Positions 23,680-58,422 of a DNA stretch of 64,000 bases are shown one piece after another. Location of the stretch: assembly GCF_044324785.1 (NCBI RefSeq), contig NZ_CP172127.1; one strand, given 5' to 3'. The stretch is from Escherichia coli (lineage in GTDB: Bacteria; Pseudomonadota; Gammaproteobacteria; Enterobacterales; Enterobacteriaceae). A program made the position numbers and the translations under genes. A model generated the notes under the pieces. The model saw nothing but the letters and a program-made list of their open reading frames with translations. It did no database searches and was not told where the DNA came from. Position 1 is the stretch's first letter; each line of letters starts with the position of its first letter.

Positions 23680-24418
23680 ATGGACGACACACAATTGCAG
23701 GCTCTGGCTAACGAACTGGCCAAAAATCTCAAAACCCCTGAAGATCTCAGTCAGTTCGATCGCCTGCTCAAGAAAATAAGTGTTGAGGCAGCTCTCAACG
23801 CTGAACTGACTCACCATCTGGGACATGAAAAAAATCAGACCAAATCGGGAACCAACTTCCGTAATGGCTATTCCACGAAAACCGTCACCACTACCGACGG
23901 GCCGATGGAATTACGTACTCCACCTGATCGTGATGGTTCCTTCGAACCACAACTGGTGAAGAAAAATCAGACCCGCATTACCGGCATGGACAACCAGATC
24001 CTGGCGCTGTATGCCAGAGGGATGACTACCCGCGAAATTACCTCAGCCTTCAAAGAAATGTACGACGCCGATGTCTCGCCCACGCTGATATCCAAAGTGA
24101 CCGATGCGGTTAAAGAACAGGTCTCTGAATGGCAAAACCGACCGTTGGATGCACTGTATCCCATTGTTTATCTTGACTGTATTGTGGTTAAGGTTCGTCA
24201 CAGCGGGAGTGTCATTAACAAAGCGGTGTTCCTCGCGCTGGGCATCAATACCGACGGTCAGAAAGAGCTGCTGGATATGTGGCTGGCCGAAAATGAAGGT
24301 GCAAAGTTCTGGCTGAATGTACTGACGGAACTGAAAAATCGCGGCCTGAACGATATCCTTATCGCCTTCGTGGACGGCCTGAAAGGCTTCCCGGAAGCGA
24401 TTAATGCCGTCTATCCCA
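23680..24418 (+). pseudogene. IS256-family transposase, N-terminal about 246 aa, truncated by IS200 sequence
   Basis: MDDTQLQALANELAKNLKTPEDL...NAELTHHLGHEK...LDCIVVKVR...IAFVDGLKGFPEAINAVYP then loss of homology. Confidence 0.8.
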
Positions 24419-24650
24419 TAAAGCCGGATACGCTCATTTTGGGCGGGATCTCCACAAGCATATGGATATGATCTGCACAGCACTCAGCTTCAAGAATCCG
24501 TACACTTTTCCACTCACACAGCTTTCTCAAAATACTGCCTGTTGCTTTACGCTTCTCTCTGTAGAACACTTTTCTTCGGTATTTTGGCGCAAAAACTATG
24601 TGATATTTACAGTTCCATCGGGTATGCGCTAAGCTCTTTTCGTTCCCCAT
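24418..24650 (-). pseudogene. tnpA: IS200 transposase TnpA, N-terminal part only
   Basis: MGNEKSLAHTRWNCKYHIVFAPKYRRKVFYREKRKATGSILRKLCEWKSVRILEAECCADHIHMLVEIPPKMSVSGFMG; gene cut off at 24418. Confidence 0.75.
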
Positions 24651-24654
24651 TGGG

Positions 24655-24723
24655 ACCCCCTTTTGATTTCTTGTTTGACACTTGCAGTTGCCAGACCGCA
24701 AGGTGTTTTAACAAATCAAAAGG
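24655..24723 (-). promoter_or_regulatory. IS200 5' leader stem-loop immediately upstream of the tnpA start codon
   Basis: 12-bp arms CCCCTTTTGATT (24655..24666) and AATCAAAAGGGG (24712..24723) with 45-nt loop; RBS and ATG lie directly after the stem on the minus strand. Confidence 0.4.
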
Positions 24724-24739
24724 GGTTTTAATAACTGGC

Positions 24740-25787
24740 TCAAAGCTGAAAGCTTTCCGGCCCCCAGCCTAGCTGGGGTTTTTCTGTGCACAAAAATCCG
24801 GAAACGAGTGAGCGTTTCAGGATTCTTAAACAGACCCTGGATCGGTCAACTGCTCCTAAACTGATCGGCATTACACCTGTCGGCTGCCGTTTTTTCAGCT
24901 CCGTGATCCATGGGCCGGGTTCTTTGGTAAGCAATGCTGCCGCCCTTGCCCCATGGATAAATAATGTCCGGTGGTAGGTATCCCCACGTTTGCTTATCCC
25001 CAGCATGCGAACCTTCCCAGCGGACCCCGTCTGCTTCGGCACCAGACAGACATAAGCGTCAAACTCACGTCCGGATTTAAATGCTGAGGCCTCGCCCATG
25101 GTGGCGACCACCGCCGTAGCGATTAACGGCCCCACACCGGGGATTTCCATTAGGCGCTTACAGTTTTCGCTCTGCCGTGCCACGCTGTTAATCTGTTTAT
25201 CAAGGCCATCTATCTGCATGCCCAGCTCACTCAGTCTGTTGTACTGGTATTCAAGCACAGTGATGAGATACGGCGGCAGGTTCGTCTTCATTCGCTCTAG
25301 GGCTGTCGGTAGCTTTCTGTCCATCGCTGTCCAATCTTTGTGGAGGATTTCACCAAACTCGAGGAGCGTGCCAAGGGTATTAATATGCGAGGTTCTGAAC
25401 TTCACCAGTTGTCTGCGCGAACGGTGCAGGACCAGAACTGACTGCTTCTCTTCCGTTTTAACAGCGATATCTTTACTGGGCTGCTGTACCGCCATCCAGA
25501 TAGCACGCGCATCCATCACATCATTTTTGTTGCCCATGACGAATGCTTTAACGAAGCGAGCTTGCAACAGCCGAACTTTGTGTCCCAGTTTTTTCCAGTT
25601 CCCTCGCCCAATGTTGGGAGCCTCCACAAGCCTCCATACCTATCAGACAGGGTTCCCGGTTGCTGAAGAACGTCAGAAAATCCTTGCTACGTAGCTGCTT
25701 GTCCACCACTTCGCCCGTGTACTCATTGATGAAGTGAACCTGAATCAGATACTTTGCGATATCAACGCCAACCGGTGTATATTTCAT
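24740..25787 (-). pseudogene. IS110-family transposase, frameshifted near 25600
   Basis: N-terminus MKYTPVGVDIAKYLIQVHFINEYTGEVVDK...LIGMEACGGSQHWAREL (ORF 25548..25886), continuing in another frame with MEIPGVGPLIATAVVA...MLGISKRGD (ORF 24740..25627). Confidence 0.75.
24761..24783 (+). terminator. Hairpin followed by a T-run (rho-independent terminator-like), at the IS200 left end and the 3' end of the IS110-family gene
   Basis: CCCCCAGC-CTA-GCTGGGG followed by TTTTT on the plus strand. Confidence 0.35.
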
Positions 25788-26028
25788 TTGTGGAGTCGCC
25801 AGTCTGAGGGCGCTTTTGCATCCCGTATTGGGCACTATGATGCCGGAAATCTGAGAGGCTCCACAGCAGACAATTTTACCCTTCATCCATCACAGTGCAC
25901 CTCTCTTAACAGGGCAGGATGTGTTCAGTACATTTCTCCTTTTATGGTTACAGTTTATCCATCATGGCGTAATTGAAGGCTGTCGTGAAGGAGAGGAAGA
26001 GCATCTCATCACTTACAAACAAATACAT

Positions 26029-29825: not shown

Positions 29826-29850
29826 TTGTCAACAACGGATGAAAAGTGGC
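29826..29850. repeat. Solo IS21-family (IS100-like) terminal IR remnant
   Basis: TGTCAACAACGGATGAAAAGTGG, nearly identical to the IS100-like IR at 12747..12772; no IS21-family genes adjacent. Confidence 0.4.
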
Positions 29851-29860
29851 ACTTCCTTGG

Positions 29861-29950
29861 ATTTACCTCTATATTTCCAGACATCTGTTATCACTTAACC
29901 TGTTACTGTCCTTCAACTGCAGGTGATTCAGGGGGCCAGTCTAACCGCTA
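29861..29950. mobile_element. Miniature IS2 remnant: both IS2 ends fused, about 90 bp, no coding sequence
   Basis: TGGATTTACCTCTATATTTCCAGACATCTGTTATCACTTAACC (IS2 right-end-like) joined to CAGGTGATTCAGGGGGCCAGTCTA (IS2 left-end-like); compare the intact IS2 ends at 38350 and 39680. Confidence 0.5.
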
Positions 29951-30074
29951 AGAACATGTTCCCGAAAATTGAGATAAACACGTTATGACAGCAACGTAAA
30001 ATAAAACAGCGTTTTTTAGTCATAATGAACATGTAGAGTCCGTTTGTTCATACTCTGTGATTATCTCCATACGT

Positions 30075-36558: not shown

Positions 36559-36653
36559 GCTTCATTTCGCGCACAGCCATCCCCCTGAAATCTGGCTGAC
36601 TGTTATTTCGCAACAGTTATTGAGTAAATCTTTAACCTGTTAACAGAGGGTTT

Positions 36654-37178
36654 ATGAAACGTAAACTTATTGCCTTTGTGATTCTGGCTACATCATCCTG
36701 TGGATATGCAGCCACCAAAGATGTAACAATGAATCTTGTTGATAGTGACGGAAAAGAGCGAAATATTGGTAAAATAACCATCCAGAAGACACCCTACGGG
36801 CTGCTGTTCACCCCTGATCTTCACTCCTTACCCGCCGGCATTCATGGTTTTCATGTACATGAAAACGCAAGTTGTGCTCCTGCCCTGAAAGATGGAAAAA
36901 CTGTCGCTGCTTTATCTGCAGGTGGTCACTTTGACCCGGAAAAAACAGGGAAGCATCTCGGTCCATGGTCTCCTGATGGCCACCTGGGTGATCTCCCTGC
37001 GCTTTATGTCACTCATGACGGAAAAGCAACCTACCCGGTGCTTGCGCCAAGACTATCTGAATTAAAGGAGCTCGATGGCCGTTCGCTAATGCTCCACGCA
37101 GGAGGTGATAATCATGATGACCATCCTGAACCTCTAGGTGGCGGTGGTGCAAGAATTGCCTGTGGTATCATCCCATAA
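36654..37178 (+). CDS. sodC: Periplasmic Cu/Zn superoxide dismutase, prophage-type SodC (second copy)
   Basis: Identical 174-aa product to 22235..22759. Confidence 0.9.
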
Positions 37179-37306
37179 TCAATCAGGTAAGGGATATCCT
37201 CCCTTACCCTTAATCTTCCCTGGCTGCATGTGCATATCTTTCAGTTACTGTGAGATACCTGTATTACGGTGTCTTTTTAGCTCACAGAAATATCAGACAG
37301 CCCGTT

Positions 37307-37531
37307 TCAGTGTTTTATTACCTTAATCTTTTTACGGCATTCTTCAGCTCTTGCGCATGCTATTTTTTCACCTGTTTCATAACATTGCTGGCAGCCTAAT
37401 CCAAATTTCATCGCCATATCATAACCTTCCCGAAAACCTCGGAACCACGCGTTACGAAGGTATTCATCATATTCCCCGCAGTCAATAATAACCATTTTAT
37501 TTTCATGGGATTTTCCGGTATTCTCACTCAT
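37307..37531 (-). CDS. Hypothetical small Cys-containing protein (copy of 21882..22106)
   Basis: Same 74-aa product with 2 substitutions (H-to-Q, Y-to-C in the 119-aa track ORF). Confidence 0.35.
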   Translation of the reverse strand: MSENTGKSHENKMVIIDCGEYDEYLRNAWFRGFREGYDMAMKFGLGCQQCYETGEKIACARAEECRKKIKVIKH

Positions 37532-38360
37532 TTTCGATACCTCAATGCTTACAACAGAAAAGTATACTTTTACGAAGTTCGCCTTTGCAGGACTATATAA
37601 AGTTATCACTGGATGCAAGAGCCGGAAATCCTGTATATCAGGATCAACTTTGTAATTCAATAACATATTATCCAGTGAAAAAGTAAGTATATTTAAGCTG
37701 GGGAAGGAGAAGGGGGACTTGATTTGATATTTTCATCAATAATATTATTTTTCCTCCTCCATTATTCATTCAGACCTGGTTCCGGGCGTAATTCCGATTT
37801 CTCTGTTGAAGCGATGCATTTATATTTAAATATTCACCTGTCATTGAATTTTATTTGAAATAGGAGAAAATCTCCTCCTGTACTACAGATAACCCGGAAT
37901 GTTCCTCGAAAGAAAATTCTGGCGCAGAATTCACGCCCGGTTCTGTTCAACATCATGCAGGATAACGATACCGAAACGTTAAACTCTGGCAATTCTCGTG
38001 TTATACACAGGCAGGAGTGATTACTACGGTAAGAATTGCTGAAAAGGGGAGAACACTGAAGGCCTTATTCGCGAAGAATAAAGGAGACATTTCATGTAAA
38101 TTATTATCAGAGATAACCTTCTCCAGGCGCTTTTGTTCGCTTCCTGAATTGCTACCTGATACATATTTACGGGATGCCAGCCTGGTGACTATAACTCCGA
38201 AAAGACCGATTATTGTATTGCGTGCATCCGGCATGTTTACAATGTACGCTGGTATCTAACGGAGTCTGACACAGATGCACGCAGGTGTATATTTTAACGT
38301 AATTATCCGGAAAGAACAGTATATTTTAATGCGGGAGTTGCATGAGCGGTGGATTTGCCC

Positions 38361-39266
38361 CTATATTTCCAGACACCTGTTATCACTTAACCCATTACTG
38401 GCCTGCTGCCGCAGATATTCCCGTGGCGAGCGATAACCCAGTGCACTATGCGGATGCCATTCGTTATAATGCTCGAACGCCTCTGCAAGGTTCTTTGCTG
38501 CCGTTAACCCGTCTGGTTTAGGCATGATACTGATGTAGTCACGCTTTATCGTTTTCACGAAGCTCTCTGCTATGCCGTTACTCTCCGGACTCCGCACCGC
38601 CGTGTTCTTCGGTTCAAGCCCCAACATCCGGGCAAACTGCCGTGTTTCATTAGCCCGGTAGCATGAACCATTATCCGTCAGCCACTCTACTGGAGACGCC
38701 GGAAGCTCGTTGCCGAAGCGGCGTTCCACCGCTCCCAGCATTACGTCCTGTACTGTTTCACTGTCGAAGCCGCCCGTAGTGACTGCCCAGTGCAGTGCCT
38801 CACGGTCACAGCAGTCCAGCGCGAACGTGACTCGCAGTTTTTCTCCGTTATCACAGCGGAACTCGAACCCGTCAGAGCACCATCGTTGATTGCTTTCTTT
38901 CACGGCCACTTTGCCAGTATGTGCCCGTTTCGATGGCGGTACAGCGGTTTTTCGCTCAAGCAACAGCGCATTCTGGCGCATGATCCGGTAAACACGTTTG
39001 GCATTGATCGCAGGCATACCATCAAGTTCGGCCTGTCTGCGAAGCAGCGCCCATACCCGACGATAACCATACGTGGGCAGCTCTCCGATAACATGGTGTA
39101 TACGGAGAAGCACATCCGTATCATCTGAGTGACGGCTGCGGCGACCATCTTTCCAGTCATCGGTTCGTCTGAGAATTACGTGCAACTGCGCACGCGACAC
39201 CCGGAGACAACGGCTGACTAAGCTTACTCCCCATCCCCGGGCAATAAGGGCGCGTGCGCTATCCAC
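38361..39266 (-). CDS. insD: IS2 transposase InsD (orfB)
   Basis: 301-aa [33 protein letters not shown]...[22 protein letters not shown]. Confidence 0.9.
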
Positions 39267-39589
39267 TTTTTTGCACGCCCGTATTCAACGGCTTCTTTAA
39301 GGAGTTCATTTTCCATCGTTTTTTTGCCGAGCAGGCGCTGGAGTTCTTTAATCTGCTTCATGGCAGCAGCAAGTTCAGAGGCAGGAACGACCTGCTCTCC
39401 TGCGGCCACAGCAGTAAGACTTCCCTCCTGGTATTGCTTGCGCCAGAGAAATAACTGGCTGGCTGCCACACCGTGTTGCCGGGCAACAAGGGAGACCGTC
39501 ATTCCCGGTTCAAAACTCTGCTGAACAATAGCGATCTTTTCCTGTGTAGTACGCCGTCTGCGTTTCTCCGGTCCTAAGACATCAATCAT
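39224..39589 (-). CDS. insC: IS2 InsC (orfA)
   Basis: [52 protein letters not shown]...; the track ORF is extended upstream to 39634. Confidence 0.85.
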
Positions 39590-39681
39590 CTGCTCTCCAA
39601 TGACTAGTCTAAAAACTAGTATTAAGACTATCACTTATTTAAGTGATATTGGTTGTCTGGAGATTCAGGGGGCCAGTCTAA

Positions 39682-39948
<267 letters not shown>

Positions 39949-40069
39949 CAACGTATTCATGAGCTGGAAAAGCAGGTTCGTCGCCTGGAGGAACAAAAAA
40001 CGATATTAAAAAGCTACAGTGCTCTTGATATCCTCCCCACTGAACGGTTTACGATAGTTACCAGACTGA

Positions 40070-40499
<430 letters not shown>

Positions 40500-51539: not shown

Positions 51540-51716
51540 TACGCTTAAAGCATTCAGGACTTGTGCTGTTTTGCGTTTTCCGTGGAGATGGAGGGTTATA
51601 CCGTCAGAGCTAATAATTTGTCGACTGCATCTCCATCCGCAAGGTAACTGTAGAAGTGTCTGGTGATGCTGCCAACTTACTGATTTAGTGTATGATGGTG
51701 TTTTTGAGGTGCTCCA

Positions 51717-51992
51717 GTGGCTTCTGTTTCTATCAGCTGTCCCTCCTGTTCAGCTACTGACGGGGTGGTGCGTAACGGCAAAAGCACCGCCGGACATCAG
51801 CGCTATCTCTGCTCTCACTGCCGTAAAACATGGCAACTGCAGTTCACTTACACCGCTTCTCAACCCGGTACGCACCAGAAAATCATTGATATGGCCATGA
51901 ATGGCGTTGGATGCCGGGCAACTGCCCGCATTATGGGCGTTGGCCTCAACACGATTTTACGTCACTTAAAAAACTCAGGCCGCAGTCGGTAA
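51717..51992 (+). CDS. insA: IS1 InsA
   Basis: [88 protein letters not shown]. Confidence 0.9.
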
Positions 51993-52414
51993 CCTCGCGC
52001 ATACAGCCGGGCAGTGACGTCATCGTCTGCGCGGAAATGGACGAACAGTGGGGCTATGTCGGGGCTAAATCGCGCCAGCGCTGGCTGTTTTACGCGTATG
52101 ACAGTCTCCGGAAGACGGTTGTTGCGCACGTATTCGGTGAACGCACTATGGCGACGCTGGGGCGTCTTATGAGCCTGCTGTCACCCTTTGACGTGGTGAT
52201 ATGGATGACGGATGGCTGGCCGCTGTATGAATCCCGCCTGAAGGGAAAGCTGCACGTAATCAGCAAGCGATATACGCAGCGAATTGAGCGGCATAACCTG
52301 AATCTGAGGCAGCACCTGGCACGGCTGGGACGGAAGTCGCTGTCGTTTTCAAAATCGGTGGAGCTGCATGACAAAGTCATCAGGCATTATCTGAACATAA
52401 AACACTATCAATAA
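51911..52414 (+). CDS. insB: IS1 InsB frame (expressed as an InsAB fusion by frameshifting)
   Basis: ...[51 protein letters not shown]... Confidence 0.9.
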
Positions 52415-52425
52415 GTTGGAGTCAT

Positions 52426-52578
52426 TACCGTGTTCCCGACAGACGACTCGGTGAAAAAAGTGGTGTGGCTGGCAATCCAGTCTGCGTCCCAGAAATGGAC
52501 GATGCCGTTGAAGGACTGGCGAATGGCAATGAGCCGCTTTATTATCGAGTTCGGTGACCGCCTGGACGGTCACTTCTG
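52426..52578 (+). pseudogene. IS256-family transposase C-terminal fragment (last about 50 aa), abutting the IS1 right end
   Basis: VFPTDDSVKKVVWLAIQSASQKWTMPLKDWRMAMSRFIIEFGDRLDGHF-stop. Confidence 0.75.
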
Positions 52579-52848
52579 AGAAAAGGCATTTACACAGAAT
52601 CCTAAACAGGCTCATTCAGACAGCTTTTTATTTCACTATGGCTATCCCAGAACAATCAGTACAAATAATAAAAGACATATCACAGCAACACTCCACACTG
52701 ACAGCGCAAAAATAAATGCCGCCTTTGTTATCTTCATATACAAGCAACCTGTCCTGATAATCACCAGCTCATGTTTTATTCTTAACCATTCGTCACAAAT
52801 ACAACAAAAAATAACAGCAGCAGCACCGATATCACAATATAAGATACA

Positions 52849-53304
52849 TTATTCAACACCTGAATCCCCCGCCGCTTCTCTCCCCTTTATAAAACGCCCC
52901 TTCCGGAATCCAGACCGCTGCAGTGCACGACGAAGATGACCGTATACCGTCTTGTCATTCTGCCCCGTCTCTTCTGTAATCTCCGCAATACTTAAACCTC
53001 TGTAATACCGGTTCAGTAACGCTCTGCGCTCTTCCAGCGTCAACACACCTCCGGCCGCTCTCAGATTCAGCATCGACTTATTCAGAATACAGCAGGCCTC
53101 TCCGGTAAAAAGAATACGAACAATATCTGTATACTCATCATCACAGAATACAAAATAATATCTGAATGACCTGCCTGACTGCACCCTTCTTCTGTCTGAT
53201 ATGGCATCTTCTATATATCTGATTCGACTGCTTACGGTTCCAAATACCTCTCGCAGGGCTTTTTCAAAATAAATATCTCTCGTCGCCAGGATTATATCCA
53301 GCAT
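52849..53304 (-). CDS. LuxR/FixJ-type HTH transcriptional regulator
   Basis: 151-aa ORF; C-terminal LTLEERRALLNRYYRGLSIAEITEETGQNDKTVYGHLRRA resembles a LuxR-type HTH; N-terminal domain unassigned. Confidence 0.55.
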   Translation of the reverse strand: MLDIILATRDIYFEKALREVFGTVSSRIRYIEDAISDRRRVQSGRSFRYYFVFCDDEYTDIVRILFTGEACCILNKSMLNLRAAGGVLTLEERRALLNRYYRGLSIAEITEETGQNDKTVYGHLRRALQRSGFRKGRFIKGREAAGDSGVE

Positions 53305-53365
53305 CTCTGTACCTCATTATATCCCGGGGGACTCCCCCCGGGACAGATATCTAAATCCTGACCTG

Positions 53366-54631
53366 TCAGAACTCAAAATTCACACCAGCATTCCACGATG
53401 CGGATGACCCACCTGCAGCAACTGCAACTTTTCCTGCCACATTCTCTGTGAAACGGTAGCCCACGCCCACCGCAATGGCCTGCTCATCACGGTAACCACC
53501 AACGGCTGCTGTCGCGTTAAATTTTCCAACACTGTATGGCTGGAAAAGACCGGCCAGTGCCGCGCTCTGGGCTGCACTCTCCCTTAACTCCTTCCGGTTC
53601 TCTTTAATCTGCTCCTGCATATTATTCATTCTCTCTGTCGCCATCTTCTGCCAGGCTTCCGTCAAATCCAGACGATGACTGTTATTCCTTATCGCTGCTG
53701 TATTTGAGGCTATTGCTGCATCCGTCTGCGCCCTGTTCTTCACAAGCACATCGCTGAGATGTTCTGCCTGGCTTTTCGCTTCTTTACGGGCATCCCGTAC
53801 ACTTTTATCTGTATAAGCCCGGGAAACCTGAACTGTTTCATCCGCTTTTTCTTTTATTTCATCCTGAAGAGCAAGAGAAGATGCATCCGTATACGCCACC
53901 GCTGCCGATGTGCCTGCAATAATATCCCTGCTGAGTTCATCACGTACTGCTGTAACCTGACTGTCAGTATGAGCACGGGCATCTCTGTATACACCGCCTA
54001 TCTCACCGCGCAGGGCATCCCCCGACACCCGTACAGCATCTGCAATGGCGTTGTCCATCTGTCCTTTTGTGGCCGCATCACTATCCTTAACACCATCTGA
54101 AACATTTATAATCCGGCGGGTTTCCGGTGCTCCTTTGACACTCTCTCCATATCCCTCAGGCCCGGCACCAACAGATACCACGTTATTTTCTCCCGACACC
54201 TGTGAGCCATGGCCCAGAGCTACAGAACTGGTAGAATCCTGCACAGATGAAAACGCACCAATTGCCGAGCTCTGACGAGAAGAAATAAGTGACGCTTCTT
54301 TTCCTGCAACAGTCCCCCATTCAGAGTCAGCAATAAGTGCATCATGCCCCAGACTCACACTTCCCGGAGAGTTCACAACACCAGAATTATTCCCCAAAAG
54401 CACAGTCCTGTTTGAGTCTAATAAAAAAGAATCATCACCAATCAACCATACATTTCTTACTTTATCAATCGAACGGCCAGCTACTGATTCTCCAACAAGA
54501 AAGCTATTATCTTCGCCAGGTTCAATCGGTCCGATTAAAATATCCTGAGCCTGAGCCTGAGCCGAGAGCAGCAGGGCCACACTCACTGCCAGCGCGCTTT
54601 TCTTTAAAAAAGCATCACGTCTTTTAAGCAT
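53366..54631 (-). CDS. Trimeric autotransporter adhesin, YadA/Eib-like
   Basis: Signal peptide [28 protein letters not shown]; coiled-coil stalk; C-terminal YadA-type anchor ([42 protein letters not shown]...GVNFEF); the track ORF starts 54 bp earlier. Confidence 0.8.
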
Positions 54632-55828
54632 TCTGTTATTCTCCTGTATTATTACTTCACCAGCCAGAACGGTAGTGCGGAGCAAAAATACAGTGATAAG
54701 AATCCTCTTTTATTAATTTAATAATGCCAGGAATATTATTGTGTATAATATGCGCCCTCAATTTAAGCAGCAGAAAAGCAATGACGAGAAAATCATTAAA
54801 ATACATAAAGATAAAACATCATAACTATAATTATAATAAGCGCGCTTATTTTAGCATCTGAACATTTAAAGTACTGCTATCACAAAACAATAAAAATCCT
54901 GGGTAATATCTCTGATGATTGAATGAGAAATTCACGATGTCTGGTGAGAATTCTGTTCAAAACGAGGAATGCAGACATACATGTGGCAGGCATGGACTTC
55001 CACCGATTTAACTTTTTTCCTTCCTTGTATTTACACATCACACATTTTGCGCTACAAAAATTTCACGTGGCACGCACCACGTGATCCGTAGAAAAGCCTC
55101 TTGTTACGAATTTCGTAAACCGCACGTCTGTCTGGTCGTGCGGATTTTTTATCCGTCAACTTCACATGAAACCGCCAGATCACTGTTTCCGGATTCAGAC
55201 ATCAGGCATATTATCATCCACAATGTCGTGAACAAGATCACACTTTTGCAATTCCTTTATTGATCGAAAGCAGTTAATCACGGAAATTAATTACCGGAGT
55301 GAAAGCATTACTGCATCGTAAATATCTACCATTTTTGACTACACCCTCTGACAGAATTTTCAGAGGGTTTTTTATCAGTTTCACCATCCAACCCTGTACG
55401 CCAGAATGGTTTCACTGTCACTCAGTTCTGCTATTGCCTTTTTCATCTCCCTTTACCTTACGTTCTGCCAGAGTCTGAGCCATTTGAACAGGAGGTTATC
55501 ATTGATATCGTGTTCCCGGGCAATACGGGCAACAGAGGCTCCTGGTTGCAAAACCAGTTTAACCATTTGAAGTTTAACTCATTTGAAAATGATCTGCGGG
55601 GTTCTGCGGATAATGTTTTTGCTCCATAACAGGCGCCCACCAGTTTGAAAAGGTGGGCACCTACGTTACCAATACTGGCTTAATGGATACATACGGCGGT
55701 CGGTTCTTACGGTAAAACGACACAACCAAACGCTTCTTATCCTGCAATGAACTGCTTTATTACCGAGTTTAGTGACCGCACAGACACTCACTTTTAAGAA
55801 AAACAGAATGGTAAACAAACTCCATGAA

Positions 55829-57684: not shown

Positions 57685-58422
57685 TCACTGAGCTGTAATC
57701 AATGTACAGCGCTGTACCGGGCGATGGGTAATACCGGTCACAACCGGTAACCCCAGAGACAATGCAACTGTTTTTAACGCAATATACTGGCCGGATGTAT
57801 CACCCCGGGCAGCCTGAAAACACCTTTCCACCCGGCATTGTCCGTCAGCACTTATCACCCGCCATGTCTGTTGCAATAAATCCACCCGTTGCGAACATTC
57901 TTCATCAACCGTGGCACTGACCCGTGGATGGCAAATGCTCGTCTGGCTGAGCAGCAACAGGCATCGCATTGTTGCTCCTCCATGTTGTTCCCGCAACCAG
58001 CGTAATACCACCGGTGGTGCTGGACTGGCCGTGTGATTACGTTCAGTAATACGCTCGTGCACCTGTCGGTAAAAGGAAGTACAGAATGCATGAATCTGTT
58101 GTCCGTTGATGTTTCCTTCTGCCGAATGGAGTGTGAAGTGGACGGCCAGCAGACGCGGCCAGTGATCCACCGCCTGCTGAATAAAACGCCGGATTTCCAC
58201 CGGCTCTGAAAGTACGGTTTCGGTTATTTGCACGATTTGATCCCCTTGAATGTTGCTGAACCGGTGTCGGTACGCAGGAAAGCACGCCGAGACCGGTACG
58301 ATGCCTGTTACAGCGAAGAACGAGGAATGACAGACGGGGGCAGCAGGTCGCCAGCACCAGGGACAGGGCTGATTTCCACAATACCAACGCTGGTATTTTG
58401 CACATTGCCAGCGTACCGGCAT
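57685..58422 (-). CDS. Hypothetical island protein downstream of alpA (paralog fragment at 23000..23567)
   Basis: Track ORF 57685..58479 overlaps alpA, so the start is probably later; a second long ORF is open in another frame over the same DNA (57855..58091), so the frame is uncertain. Confidence 0.35.
   Translation of the reverse strand: MPVRWQCAKYQRWYCGNQPCPWCWRPAAPVCHSSFFAVTGIVPVSACFPAYRHRFSNIQGDQIVQITETVLSEPVEIRRFIQQAVDHWPRLLAVHFTLHSAEGNINGQQIHAFCTSFYRQVHERITERNHTASPAPPVVLRWLREQHGGATMRCLLLLSQTSICHPRVSATVDEECSQRVDLLQQTWRVISADGQCRVERCFQAARGDTSGQYIALKTVALSLGLPVVTGITHRPVQRCTLITAQ

Follow-up and report, generated by a model that had tools for sequence, protein, structure and literature searches.

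Remnants of IS256-family elements in an Escherichia coli chromosomal island, probably derived from separate insertions

The closest described relatives of the locus analysed here are IS1414, ISEc39, and their unnamed kin among the IS256-family insertion sequences (IS) of E. coli. The known hallmark of IS1414 is the astA/EAST1 open reading frame (ORF), which is embedded in its transposase gene. Whether a copy counts as an isoform of a reference element is commonly decided by an ISfinder-style rule, with a threshold of at least approximately 90–95% nucleotide identity. Two kinds of IS-associated rearrangement are also relevant for comparison. IS1-mediated adjacent deletion and IS1 × IS1 recombination are classical behaviours of IS1, and the IS-flanked loss and gain of sit and aerobactin modules is known from Shigella SHI-2/SHI-3 and from ColV plasmids. 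A literature search on IS1414 returned nothing specific to the present locus.

The window, i.e., the whole stretch of 64,000 nucleotides that was analysed, is E. coli chromosomal island DNA. Over long stretches it is 99.7–99.9% identical to islands of SMS-3-5, XDL, ECCNB12-2, and AR_0085. The island content includes ibrAB, a group II intron, sodC, sitABCD, and an fdrA/carbamate-kinase cluster, along with debris of IS66, IS21, and IS3. Three pieces of IS256-family elements are located in the window, namely an N-terminal piece (N fragment) at 23608–24416, a C-terminal piece (C fragment) at 52430–52613, and a third scrap at 15970–16187. A preliminary description, made from the sequence of the window, suggested that IS1- and IS200-associated deletions or inversions had split one transposase gene and dispersed its pieces, possibly those of more than one copy. 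The three fragments do exist, each abutting another IS, and more than one IS256-like copy is indeed involved. Most probably, at least three IS256-family insertions took place separately in an IS-ridden pathogenicity island, and the pieces are their dead remains, broken by unrelated events. They are ordinary IS debris, and PGAP, the NCBI annotation pipeline, already lists them as pseudogenes in SMS-3-5, XDL, AR_0085, and ECCNB12-2.

The three fragments and their relatives

The N fragment (23608–24416, plus strand; Pfam, blastn) consists of 809 bp from the left side of an IS256-family element, of a type designated X. Its left terminal repeat begins at 23608 with GAGCCTGT, and DNA homology to the family runs from this position to 24416. 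Codons 1–246 of the transposase occupy 23680–24417. The fragment is assigned to the IS256 family because the ORF at 23680–24471 (263 aa) matches the Pfam profile Transposase_mut (PF00872) with an E-value of 5.4e-74, covering profile positions 17–246 of 379. This ORF consists of 246 transposase codons followed by 17 codons that read antisense IS200C. Two candidate catalytic residues are kept, D166 in the YLD motif and D232 in the FVD motif. The third one, the AIES glutamate E340 (numbering from the intact protein P0002), is missing along with the C-terminal third of the protein; D166, D232, and E340 are presumed to be catalytic from the IS256 literature. A complete D-D-E triad in a single ORF of approximately 400 aa is absent from the window, and all three pieces are pseudogenes. 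None of them can encode an active transposase. The open ORF of 263 codons retains its native upstream region and the left terminal repeat, and a catalytically dead, N-terminal transposase fragment could in principle be expressed from 23680–24471.

Type X (P0005/P0013; L016–L021) is found in many genomes as a single copy between sodC and a sigma-like gene. The 5' 800 nt of such copies, among them the single-copy element in L016, match the N fragment at 100%. The fragment is 92% identical to unnamed relatives of the L006/L007 type. Its identity to IS1414 is 82% at the nucleotide and 85% at the protein level, so it is not IS1414, and its identity to ISEc39 is 80%. Compared with the bodies and 5' regions of IS1414-type elements in general, the values range from 74 to 87%. 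In relation to ISEc39 and the unnamed relatives (X and the L006/L007 type), the N fragment corresponds to the 5' end of X, but the copy in the window stops at codon 246, and the window holds no intact copy of X. A DNA search of complete E. coli genomes and plasmids for intact elements of the N-fragment type at 99% identity or more recovered only the same truncated locus. Outside this locus, the closest match in these genomes and plasmids reached only 92%.

A column-wise comparison of full-length relatives (L005, L007, L008, L010, L012, L015, and L016) indicates that the E. coli IS256-family elements are strongly mosaic. X is a mosaic itself, with 94–99% identity to the L007 type over the first 400 nt and 99–100% identity to ISEc39 in the 3' half. 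Among IS1414, ISEc39, the L007 type, and X, blocks of 99–100% identity alternate with blocks of 60–80%. The IS256-family copy at the right end of the SMS-3-5 island changes from ISEc39 to X near nt 345.

The C fragment (52430–52613, plus strand; blastn) represents the last 184 bp of an IS1414-type element. It encodes codons 354–402, has its stop codon at 52577–52579, and includes the right terminal repeat ending at 52613. This repeat and the C-terminal peptide ending in FIIEFGDRLDGHF are the same as in IS1414. Over its 184 nt, the fragment matches IS1414-family copies labelled by PGAP in ACN001 (L002) and E1 (L004) at 100%, with a blastn E-value of approximately 1e-94, and also the copy in L012. 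In contrast to a full IS1414, the window retains no more than the final 14% of the element. Compared with ISEc39/X tails, the C fragment is 72–77% identical, and in the column-wise comparison the X tail reaches only 77–80%. An astA/EAST1-like ORF was not detected in the window by tblastn (best E=0.39 with an EAST1 query). The part of the element that would carry astA is deleted.

When the right end at 52613 is reverse-complemented, it has GAGCCTGT in common with the left repeat at 23608, and 20 of the first 34 positions agree. The two ends therefore qualify as imperfect terminal inverted repeats of approximately 25–40 bp. Across 23608 and 52613 there is no target-site duplication of 8–9 bp, as CCGGCATT is located to the left of 23608 and ATTCAGAC to the right of 52613.

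The third scrap lies beside ibrB on the minus strand and was located by blastn and tblastn. It consists of a left terminal repeat beginning with GAGAGTGTAATT and codons 1–50. An N-terminal scrap had been noted at 15963–16163 before; it exists, and its limits are now placed at 15970–16187. At the nucleotide level it is 74% identical to ISEc39-type left ends (E=1.7e-36). Its protein sequence is 48% identical to that of the N fragment, and over the same codons the values for IS1414 and the N fragment are 44–48%. The scrap is a separate copy, since codons 1–50 overlap the N fragment at only 48% protein identity, and it represents a third, more divergent insertion, probably an older one. Both the scrap and the C fragment are too short for Pfam, and their family placement is based on tblastn and blastn matches to IS1414 and ISEc39. 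For all three fragments, the matches are beyond what chance would produce.

In a direct test against one reference, IS1414 (L005, full-length), the C fragment reaches 93%, over 184 nt only, compared with the 82% of the N fragment, a contrast that is no more than suggestive because the family is mosaic. By lineage, the N and C fragments are assigned to different family members. They do not overlap (codons 1–246 and 354–402, respectively), so there is no direct comparison between them, and mosaicism weakens any assignment by type. The preliminary description had named an origin from clearly different family members as the outcome that would speak against a single split copy. Such a difference is seen in lineage and distribution, not in a direct overlap of the fragments.

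Junctions with IS200C and IS1

The N fragment ends at junction J1 (24412–24416), a 5-bp overlap with the sequence TATCC. In the alignment to IS256-type and IS200C references, the IS256-type references match the window up to GTCTATCC (blastn limit 24416), and IS200C matches from TATCCCATAAAG onwards (blastn limit 24412). The earlier observation that 246 N-terminal codons are followed by IS200 sequence is thereby confirmed. The IS200C fragment (24412–24796, minus strand) is 385 bp long, matches positions 2–69 of 121 of the Pfam profile Y1_Tnp, and is 97.4% identical to IS200C in L011. Its 5' end is intact at 24796, codons 1–79 of the 152 codons of tnpA are present, and the 3' half is deleted. 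With 385 bp only, it falls short of a full element, which measures approximately 0.7 kb and encodes a Y1 transposase of 152 aa. The 5' end of IS200C abuts an IS110-family transposase pseudogene (24797–25886, minus strand), which was recognised by Pfam (Transposase_20, DEDD_Tnp_IS110) and by the PGAP annotation of the orthologous stretch. This pseudogene is frameshifted and lacks its C-terminus.

J1 is internal to both elements, and no IS200 end is located there. As neither the IS256-family copy nor IS200C is at its own end and the two share the TATCC overlap, J1 is the product of an illegitimate deletion. It bears the signature of a microhomology-mediated event that joined two interiors, not of an IS200 insertion. 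The N fragment is the left part of a copy beside sodC, from which everything past codon 246 was lost in a single illegitimate deletion. Through this deletion, with TATCC as the shared overlap, the copy became fused to the inside of an IS200C inserted earlier into the IS110-family element upstream of sitA.

The C fragment begins at a complete IS1 of 768 bp (51662–52429, plus strand; Pfam DDE_Tnp_IS1, E=1.1e-76), which PGAP names IS1A in AR_0085. At the corresponding junction J2, the exact right end of IS1 is joined to the truncated IS256-family tail. The tail does lie directly at the IS1 end, as had been described, but this end is at 52429 instead of 52426, and the tail starts at 52430. IS1 is flanked by an ISL3-family element on the left and the IS256-family tail on the right, which are mutually unrelated, and it has no 9-bp target duplication (GAAGTGTCT vs. 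GTGTTCCCG). The arrangement resembles the classical IS1 deletions in that a complete IS1 is fused at one end exactly to truncated foreign DNA, with no 9-bp duplication and with unrelated flanks. Given the missing target duplication, an IS1-adjacent deletion or IS1 × IS1 recombination is likely. The C fragment would be the right end of a different, IS1414-type copy beside the sigma-like and YadA-like genes, into which IS1 landed. One of the two IS1-mediated processes would then have removed the 5' 1.1 kb of this copy. In difference to the classical cases, the event is not reconstructable here, because a pre-deletion IS1414-type copy at the exact flank was not found. A synthetic query for a longer IS1414-type copy with the exact right flank of the window recovered only related modules elsewhere, in GF4 and in the TUM1886 prophage, and no genome was found with the parent of the C fragment or the pre-deletion state at this flank.

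IS-associated events, as initially proposed, are therefore likely for the C fragment, where the absence of a duplication and the unrelated flanks point to an IS1 deletion or rearrangement. They do not hold for IS200 as the agent, since J1 is internal. An IS1-mediated inversion was also considered and ruled out, because self-blast identifies the IS1 at 51662–52429 as the sole copy in the window, which leaves no IS1 pair to bracket an inversion.

Distribution of the junctions and single-copy states

The population sample comprised 5,426 complete E. coli genomes. J1 is identical in 54 of them, and J2 is identical in about 24. Both junctions are present in 15 genomes, always at least 0.59 Mb apart by their listed coordinates and in two different islands. 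AR_0085 has J2 without the N fragment, and SMS-3-5 has J1 without J2. In ECCNB12-2 (CP033635), island A has the order sodC – N fragment – IS200' – IS110' – sitABCD – IS1' – ISL3 – iutA iucDCBA, and continues with MFS – ISL3 – a full-length (frameshifted) IS256-family copy – sigma-like gene – YadA-like gene. Island B of the same genome is located 626 kb away beside glnH and an integrase gene, and contains J2 at 100% identity. J1-bearing genomes such as SMS-3-5 and ECCNB12-2 keep a full-length IS256-family copy at the right end of the island, with its own 8-bp duplication. Because of the independent distribution, J1 and J2 are regarded as separate events in separate copies and normally separate islands. 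The J1 deletion occurred a single time, and the 54 complete genomes have inherited it.

These data bear directly on the idea that a single IS256-family copy was broken and that IS1 or IS200 deletions or inversions moved its N and C parts 28 kb apart. The fragments are non-overlapping, have the same orientation, and keep both outer terminal repeats, and intact hybrids that unite both sequences occur between identical outer flanks, all of which would fit such a split. However, IS200 is not at its own end at J1 and is itself truncated, the two junctions are independently distributed and normally lie in different islands, and in J1 genomes the right-hand copy is still complete and carries a target duplication of its own. 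The hybrids, moreover, miss 75 bp of the right flank and are thus not the ancestor of the window. A split of one copy is hence very improbable, and it is already largely refuted by ECCNB12-2, in which the two junctions are found in different islands. With the differing lineages of the fragments, the proposed dispersal of one gene is not supported, and neither is a shared origin of the two junctions.

The hybrids are intact genes of 402 aa (P0001 and P0002), identified by protein search. Their products are the same as the N fragment in the first 246 residues and the same as the C fragment in the last 49. In a few genomes they are located between sodC and the sigma-like/YadA-like genes, without the intervening 28 kb. 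Their flanks are 99.9% (left) and 99.5% (right) identical to those of the window. They switch from type X to the IS1414 type at two different internal points, near nt 860 and nt 1150. Taken by themselves, they resemble the ancestral intact copy that the preliminary description proposed to look for in related genomes, and at first they seemed to support an intact one-copy ancestor. This reading was reversed by the gap in the flank, the target duplications, and the population data, and the two switch points also speak against it. The right flank of the hybrids lacks 75 bp kept by the window (52614–52688), and for this reason they are not ancestral to it.

Target-site duplications separate complete insertions from recombinants. 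The full-length right-hand copy in SMS-3-5 and ECCNB12-2 has the 8-bp sequence ATTCTGAA on both sides, and strain GF4 has an uninterrupted target with one ATTCTGAA. The right-hand copy is thus a complete, independent insertion. By contrast, no target duplication surrounds the single X copy of L016, which has CCGGCATT on the left and ATTCTGAA on the right and therefore reads as a recombinant of two insertions. For the single-copy states at the boundary of sodC and the sigma-like gene, the best reading is that they arose secondarily, by recombination of a left and a right copy, in the course of which the intervening DNA would have been lost.

One further rearranged locus is found in L019 (GCA_002155205.1, MUBP01000018.1, 9480–11400). 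There, a full-length X copy with 35 bp of sigma-side flank is fused inside the N fragment at the equivalent of window position 24345, followed by IS200' – IS110' – sitA. Upstream, an ISEc39-type 5' stump and 19 nt of sodC-side flank are present. The locus looks like a novel joint of a tandem duplication or a circularisation of the sit-aerobactin segment.

A different way to relate the two fragments would be a Campbell-type integration. In this case, a circular sit segment with an IS256-family copy of its own would have recombined with a lone copy already resident at the boundary of sodC and the sigma-like gene. Both the 5' part of the left copy and the 3' part of the right one would stem from that resident element, and later independent truncations would have produced the two fragments. 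Single-copy states with the same flanks do occur in many genomes (P0005 on at least 24 contigs, P0001/P0002 on a few more). The left and right copies of SMS-3-5 are 100% identical over alignment columns 400–800 (approximately 400 nt), and their 5' ends are 63–86% identical, as a crossover would leave them; the L019 junction would fit circularisation or tandem duplication of the sit-iuc segment. The right-hand copy of SMS-3-5, however, has matching 8-bp repeats, which indicates that both of its ends come from one insertion. The single X copy has no target duplication, as expected of a derived recombinant and not of an ancestor. In addition, the tail type and flank state of the C fragment match neither single-copy state; its flank is 46 bp shorter than in SMS-3-5 and 75 bp longer than in L012. 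Integration by this route is considered doubtful, with a small chance of being correct, and separate insertions remain the preferred reading.

Island assembly and surrounding sequences

The distance of 28 kb between the fragments coincides with a change of island homology. Up to approximately 29965, the window follows the SMS-3-5-type island A, as in ECCNB12-2, at 99.7–99.9% identity, and from approximately 29842 it follows the AR_0085 type at 99.9%. At the changeover, 124 bp are common to both homologies. The homology to SMS-3-5 stops at the very position where that genome has the start of a truncated IS1, just downstream of sitD. The spacing thus appears to be secondary and to result from island assembly, not to be the trace of one element pulled apart. 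The join of the window at 29842–29965 was found in none of the 5,426 complete E. coli genomes. The spacing may go back to a genuine recombinant (e.g., by inversion between islands), to an older arrangement that was lost in SMS-3-5 via the IS1 remnant, or to an assembly chimera. The complete genomes of strain 135 (CP080260) and CM2 (CP158308) have both islands, oppositely oriented, and an inversion spanning 0.6–1.6 Mb and ending downstream of the sit operons would account for the order in the window.

In the last case, the proximity of the fragments would be an artefact, with two islands that share approximately 3.5 kb of the sit operon and a 124-bp repeat being misjoined. The absence of the join from all complete genomes is in line with this, as is the match of the left and right sides to two island types that lie far apart in 15 genomes. 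AR_0085, however, is continuous where SMS-3-5 has the IS1 remnant, and the order seen in the window could be genuine or even older. A misjoin is accordingly rated as improbable.

The terminal repeats at 23608 and 52613 are in direct orientation and bracket approximately 29 kb with sitABCD, a second sodC, an ABC transporter, and the fdrA/carbamate-kinase cluster. In principle, this whole segment might be mobile as a giant pseudo-transposon, with an IS1414-family transposase acting in trans. This idea arises because intact hybrids that use exactly these two ends exist (P0001/P0002). More modestly, the IS256-family copies at the boundary between sodC and the sigma-like gene might act as a recurrent recombination switch by which the sit/aerobactin cassette is gained or lost, the hybrid genes being its scars. 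Both versions are speculative and quite improbable.

Similarities to the IS-flanked virulence modules are nevertheless apparent. Directly oriented IS256-family copies bracket sit(-iuc) in SMS-3-5-type islands, and genomes without the sit(-iuc) segment have a single recombinant copy between the same flanks. In the window, by contrast, both bracketing copies are truncated to non-overlapping remnants, so no mutual recombination would take place beyond them. The fragments have little import beyond bookkeeping, as they document the mosaicism of E. coli IS256-family elements (IS1414, ISEc39, and unnamed relatives). Remnants of this family mark the edges of sit/aerobactin modules in chromosomal islands, and can help to trace the assembly and loss of such islands. 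They also call for caution, since non-overlapping fragments in the same orientation, and even an intact gene with both sequences, are no proof of one split copy. In this case, the deciding evidence was provided by population distribution and target-site duplications.

The sodC region is also present as a second, inverted copy in the window. The inverted duplication of 2.5 kb includes sodC and has arms at 20301–22823 and 36590–40447 that are 99.2–99.6% identical. The two sodC genes have opposite orientations (22235–22759, minus strand; approximately 36653–37177, plus strand), and the second arm is broken by an IS2-like element at approximately 38349–39680. The arms flank the N fragment and sitABCD, and this segment could be inverted between them. 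A direct repeat of approximately 330 bp with 82% identity is located at 23106–23428, between sodC and the N fragment, and at 57944–58282, downstream of the YadA-like gene.

To the right of the C fragment, a sigma-factor-like HTH gene (52849–53304, minus strand) is followed by a YadA-like adhesin gene of the trimeric autotransporter type (53366–54685, minus strand). IbrAB are regulators of the Eib immunoglobulin-binding adhesins, which are YadA-like trimeric autotransporters. In the window, ibrB-like and ibrA-like (PAPS-reductase-like) genes at 16203–18100 share the island with this YadA-like gene. The unit of IS256-family element, sigma-factor-like HTH gene, and YadA-like gene, found at 52430–54685, recurs in varied contexts, such as beside dolP in GF4 (L023) and in the prophage tail-fibre region of TUM1886 (L024). 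Within the unit, the spacer after the IS256-family end varies by indels of 46, 75, and approximately 117 bp. Just upstream in SMS-3-5, remnants of at least two further IS256-family ends are located. The site at the sigma-like gene looks like a hot spot or a graveyard for the family.
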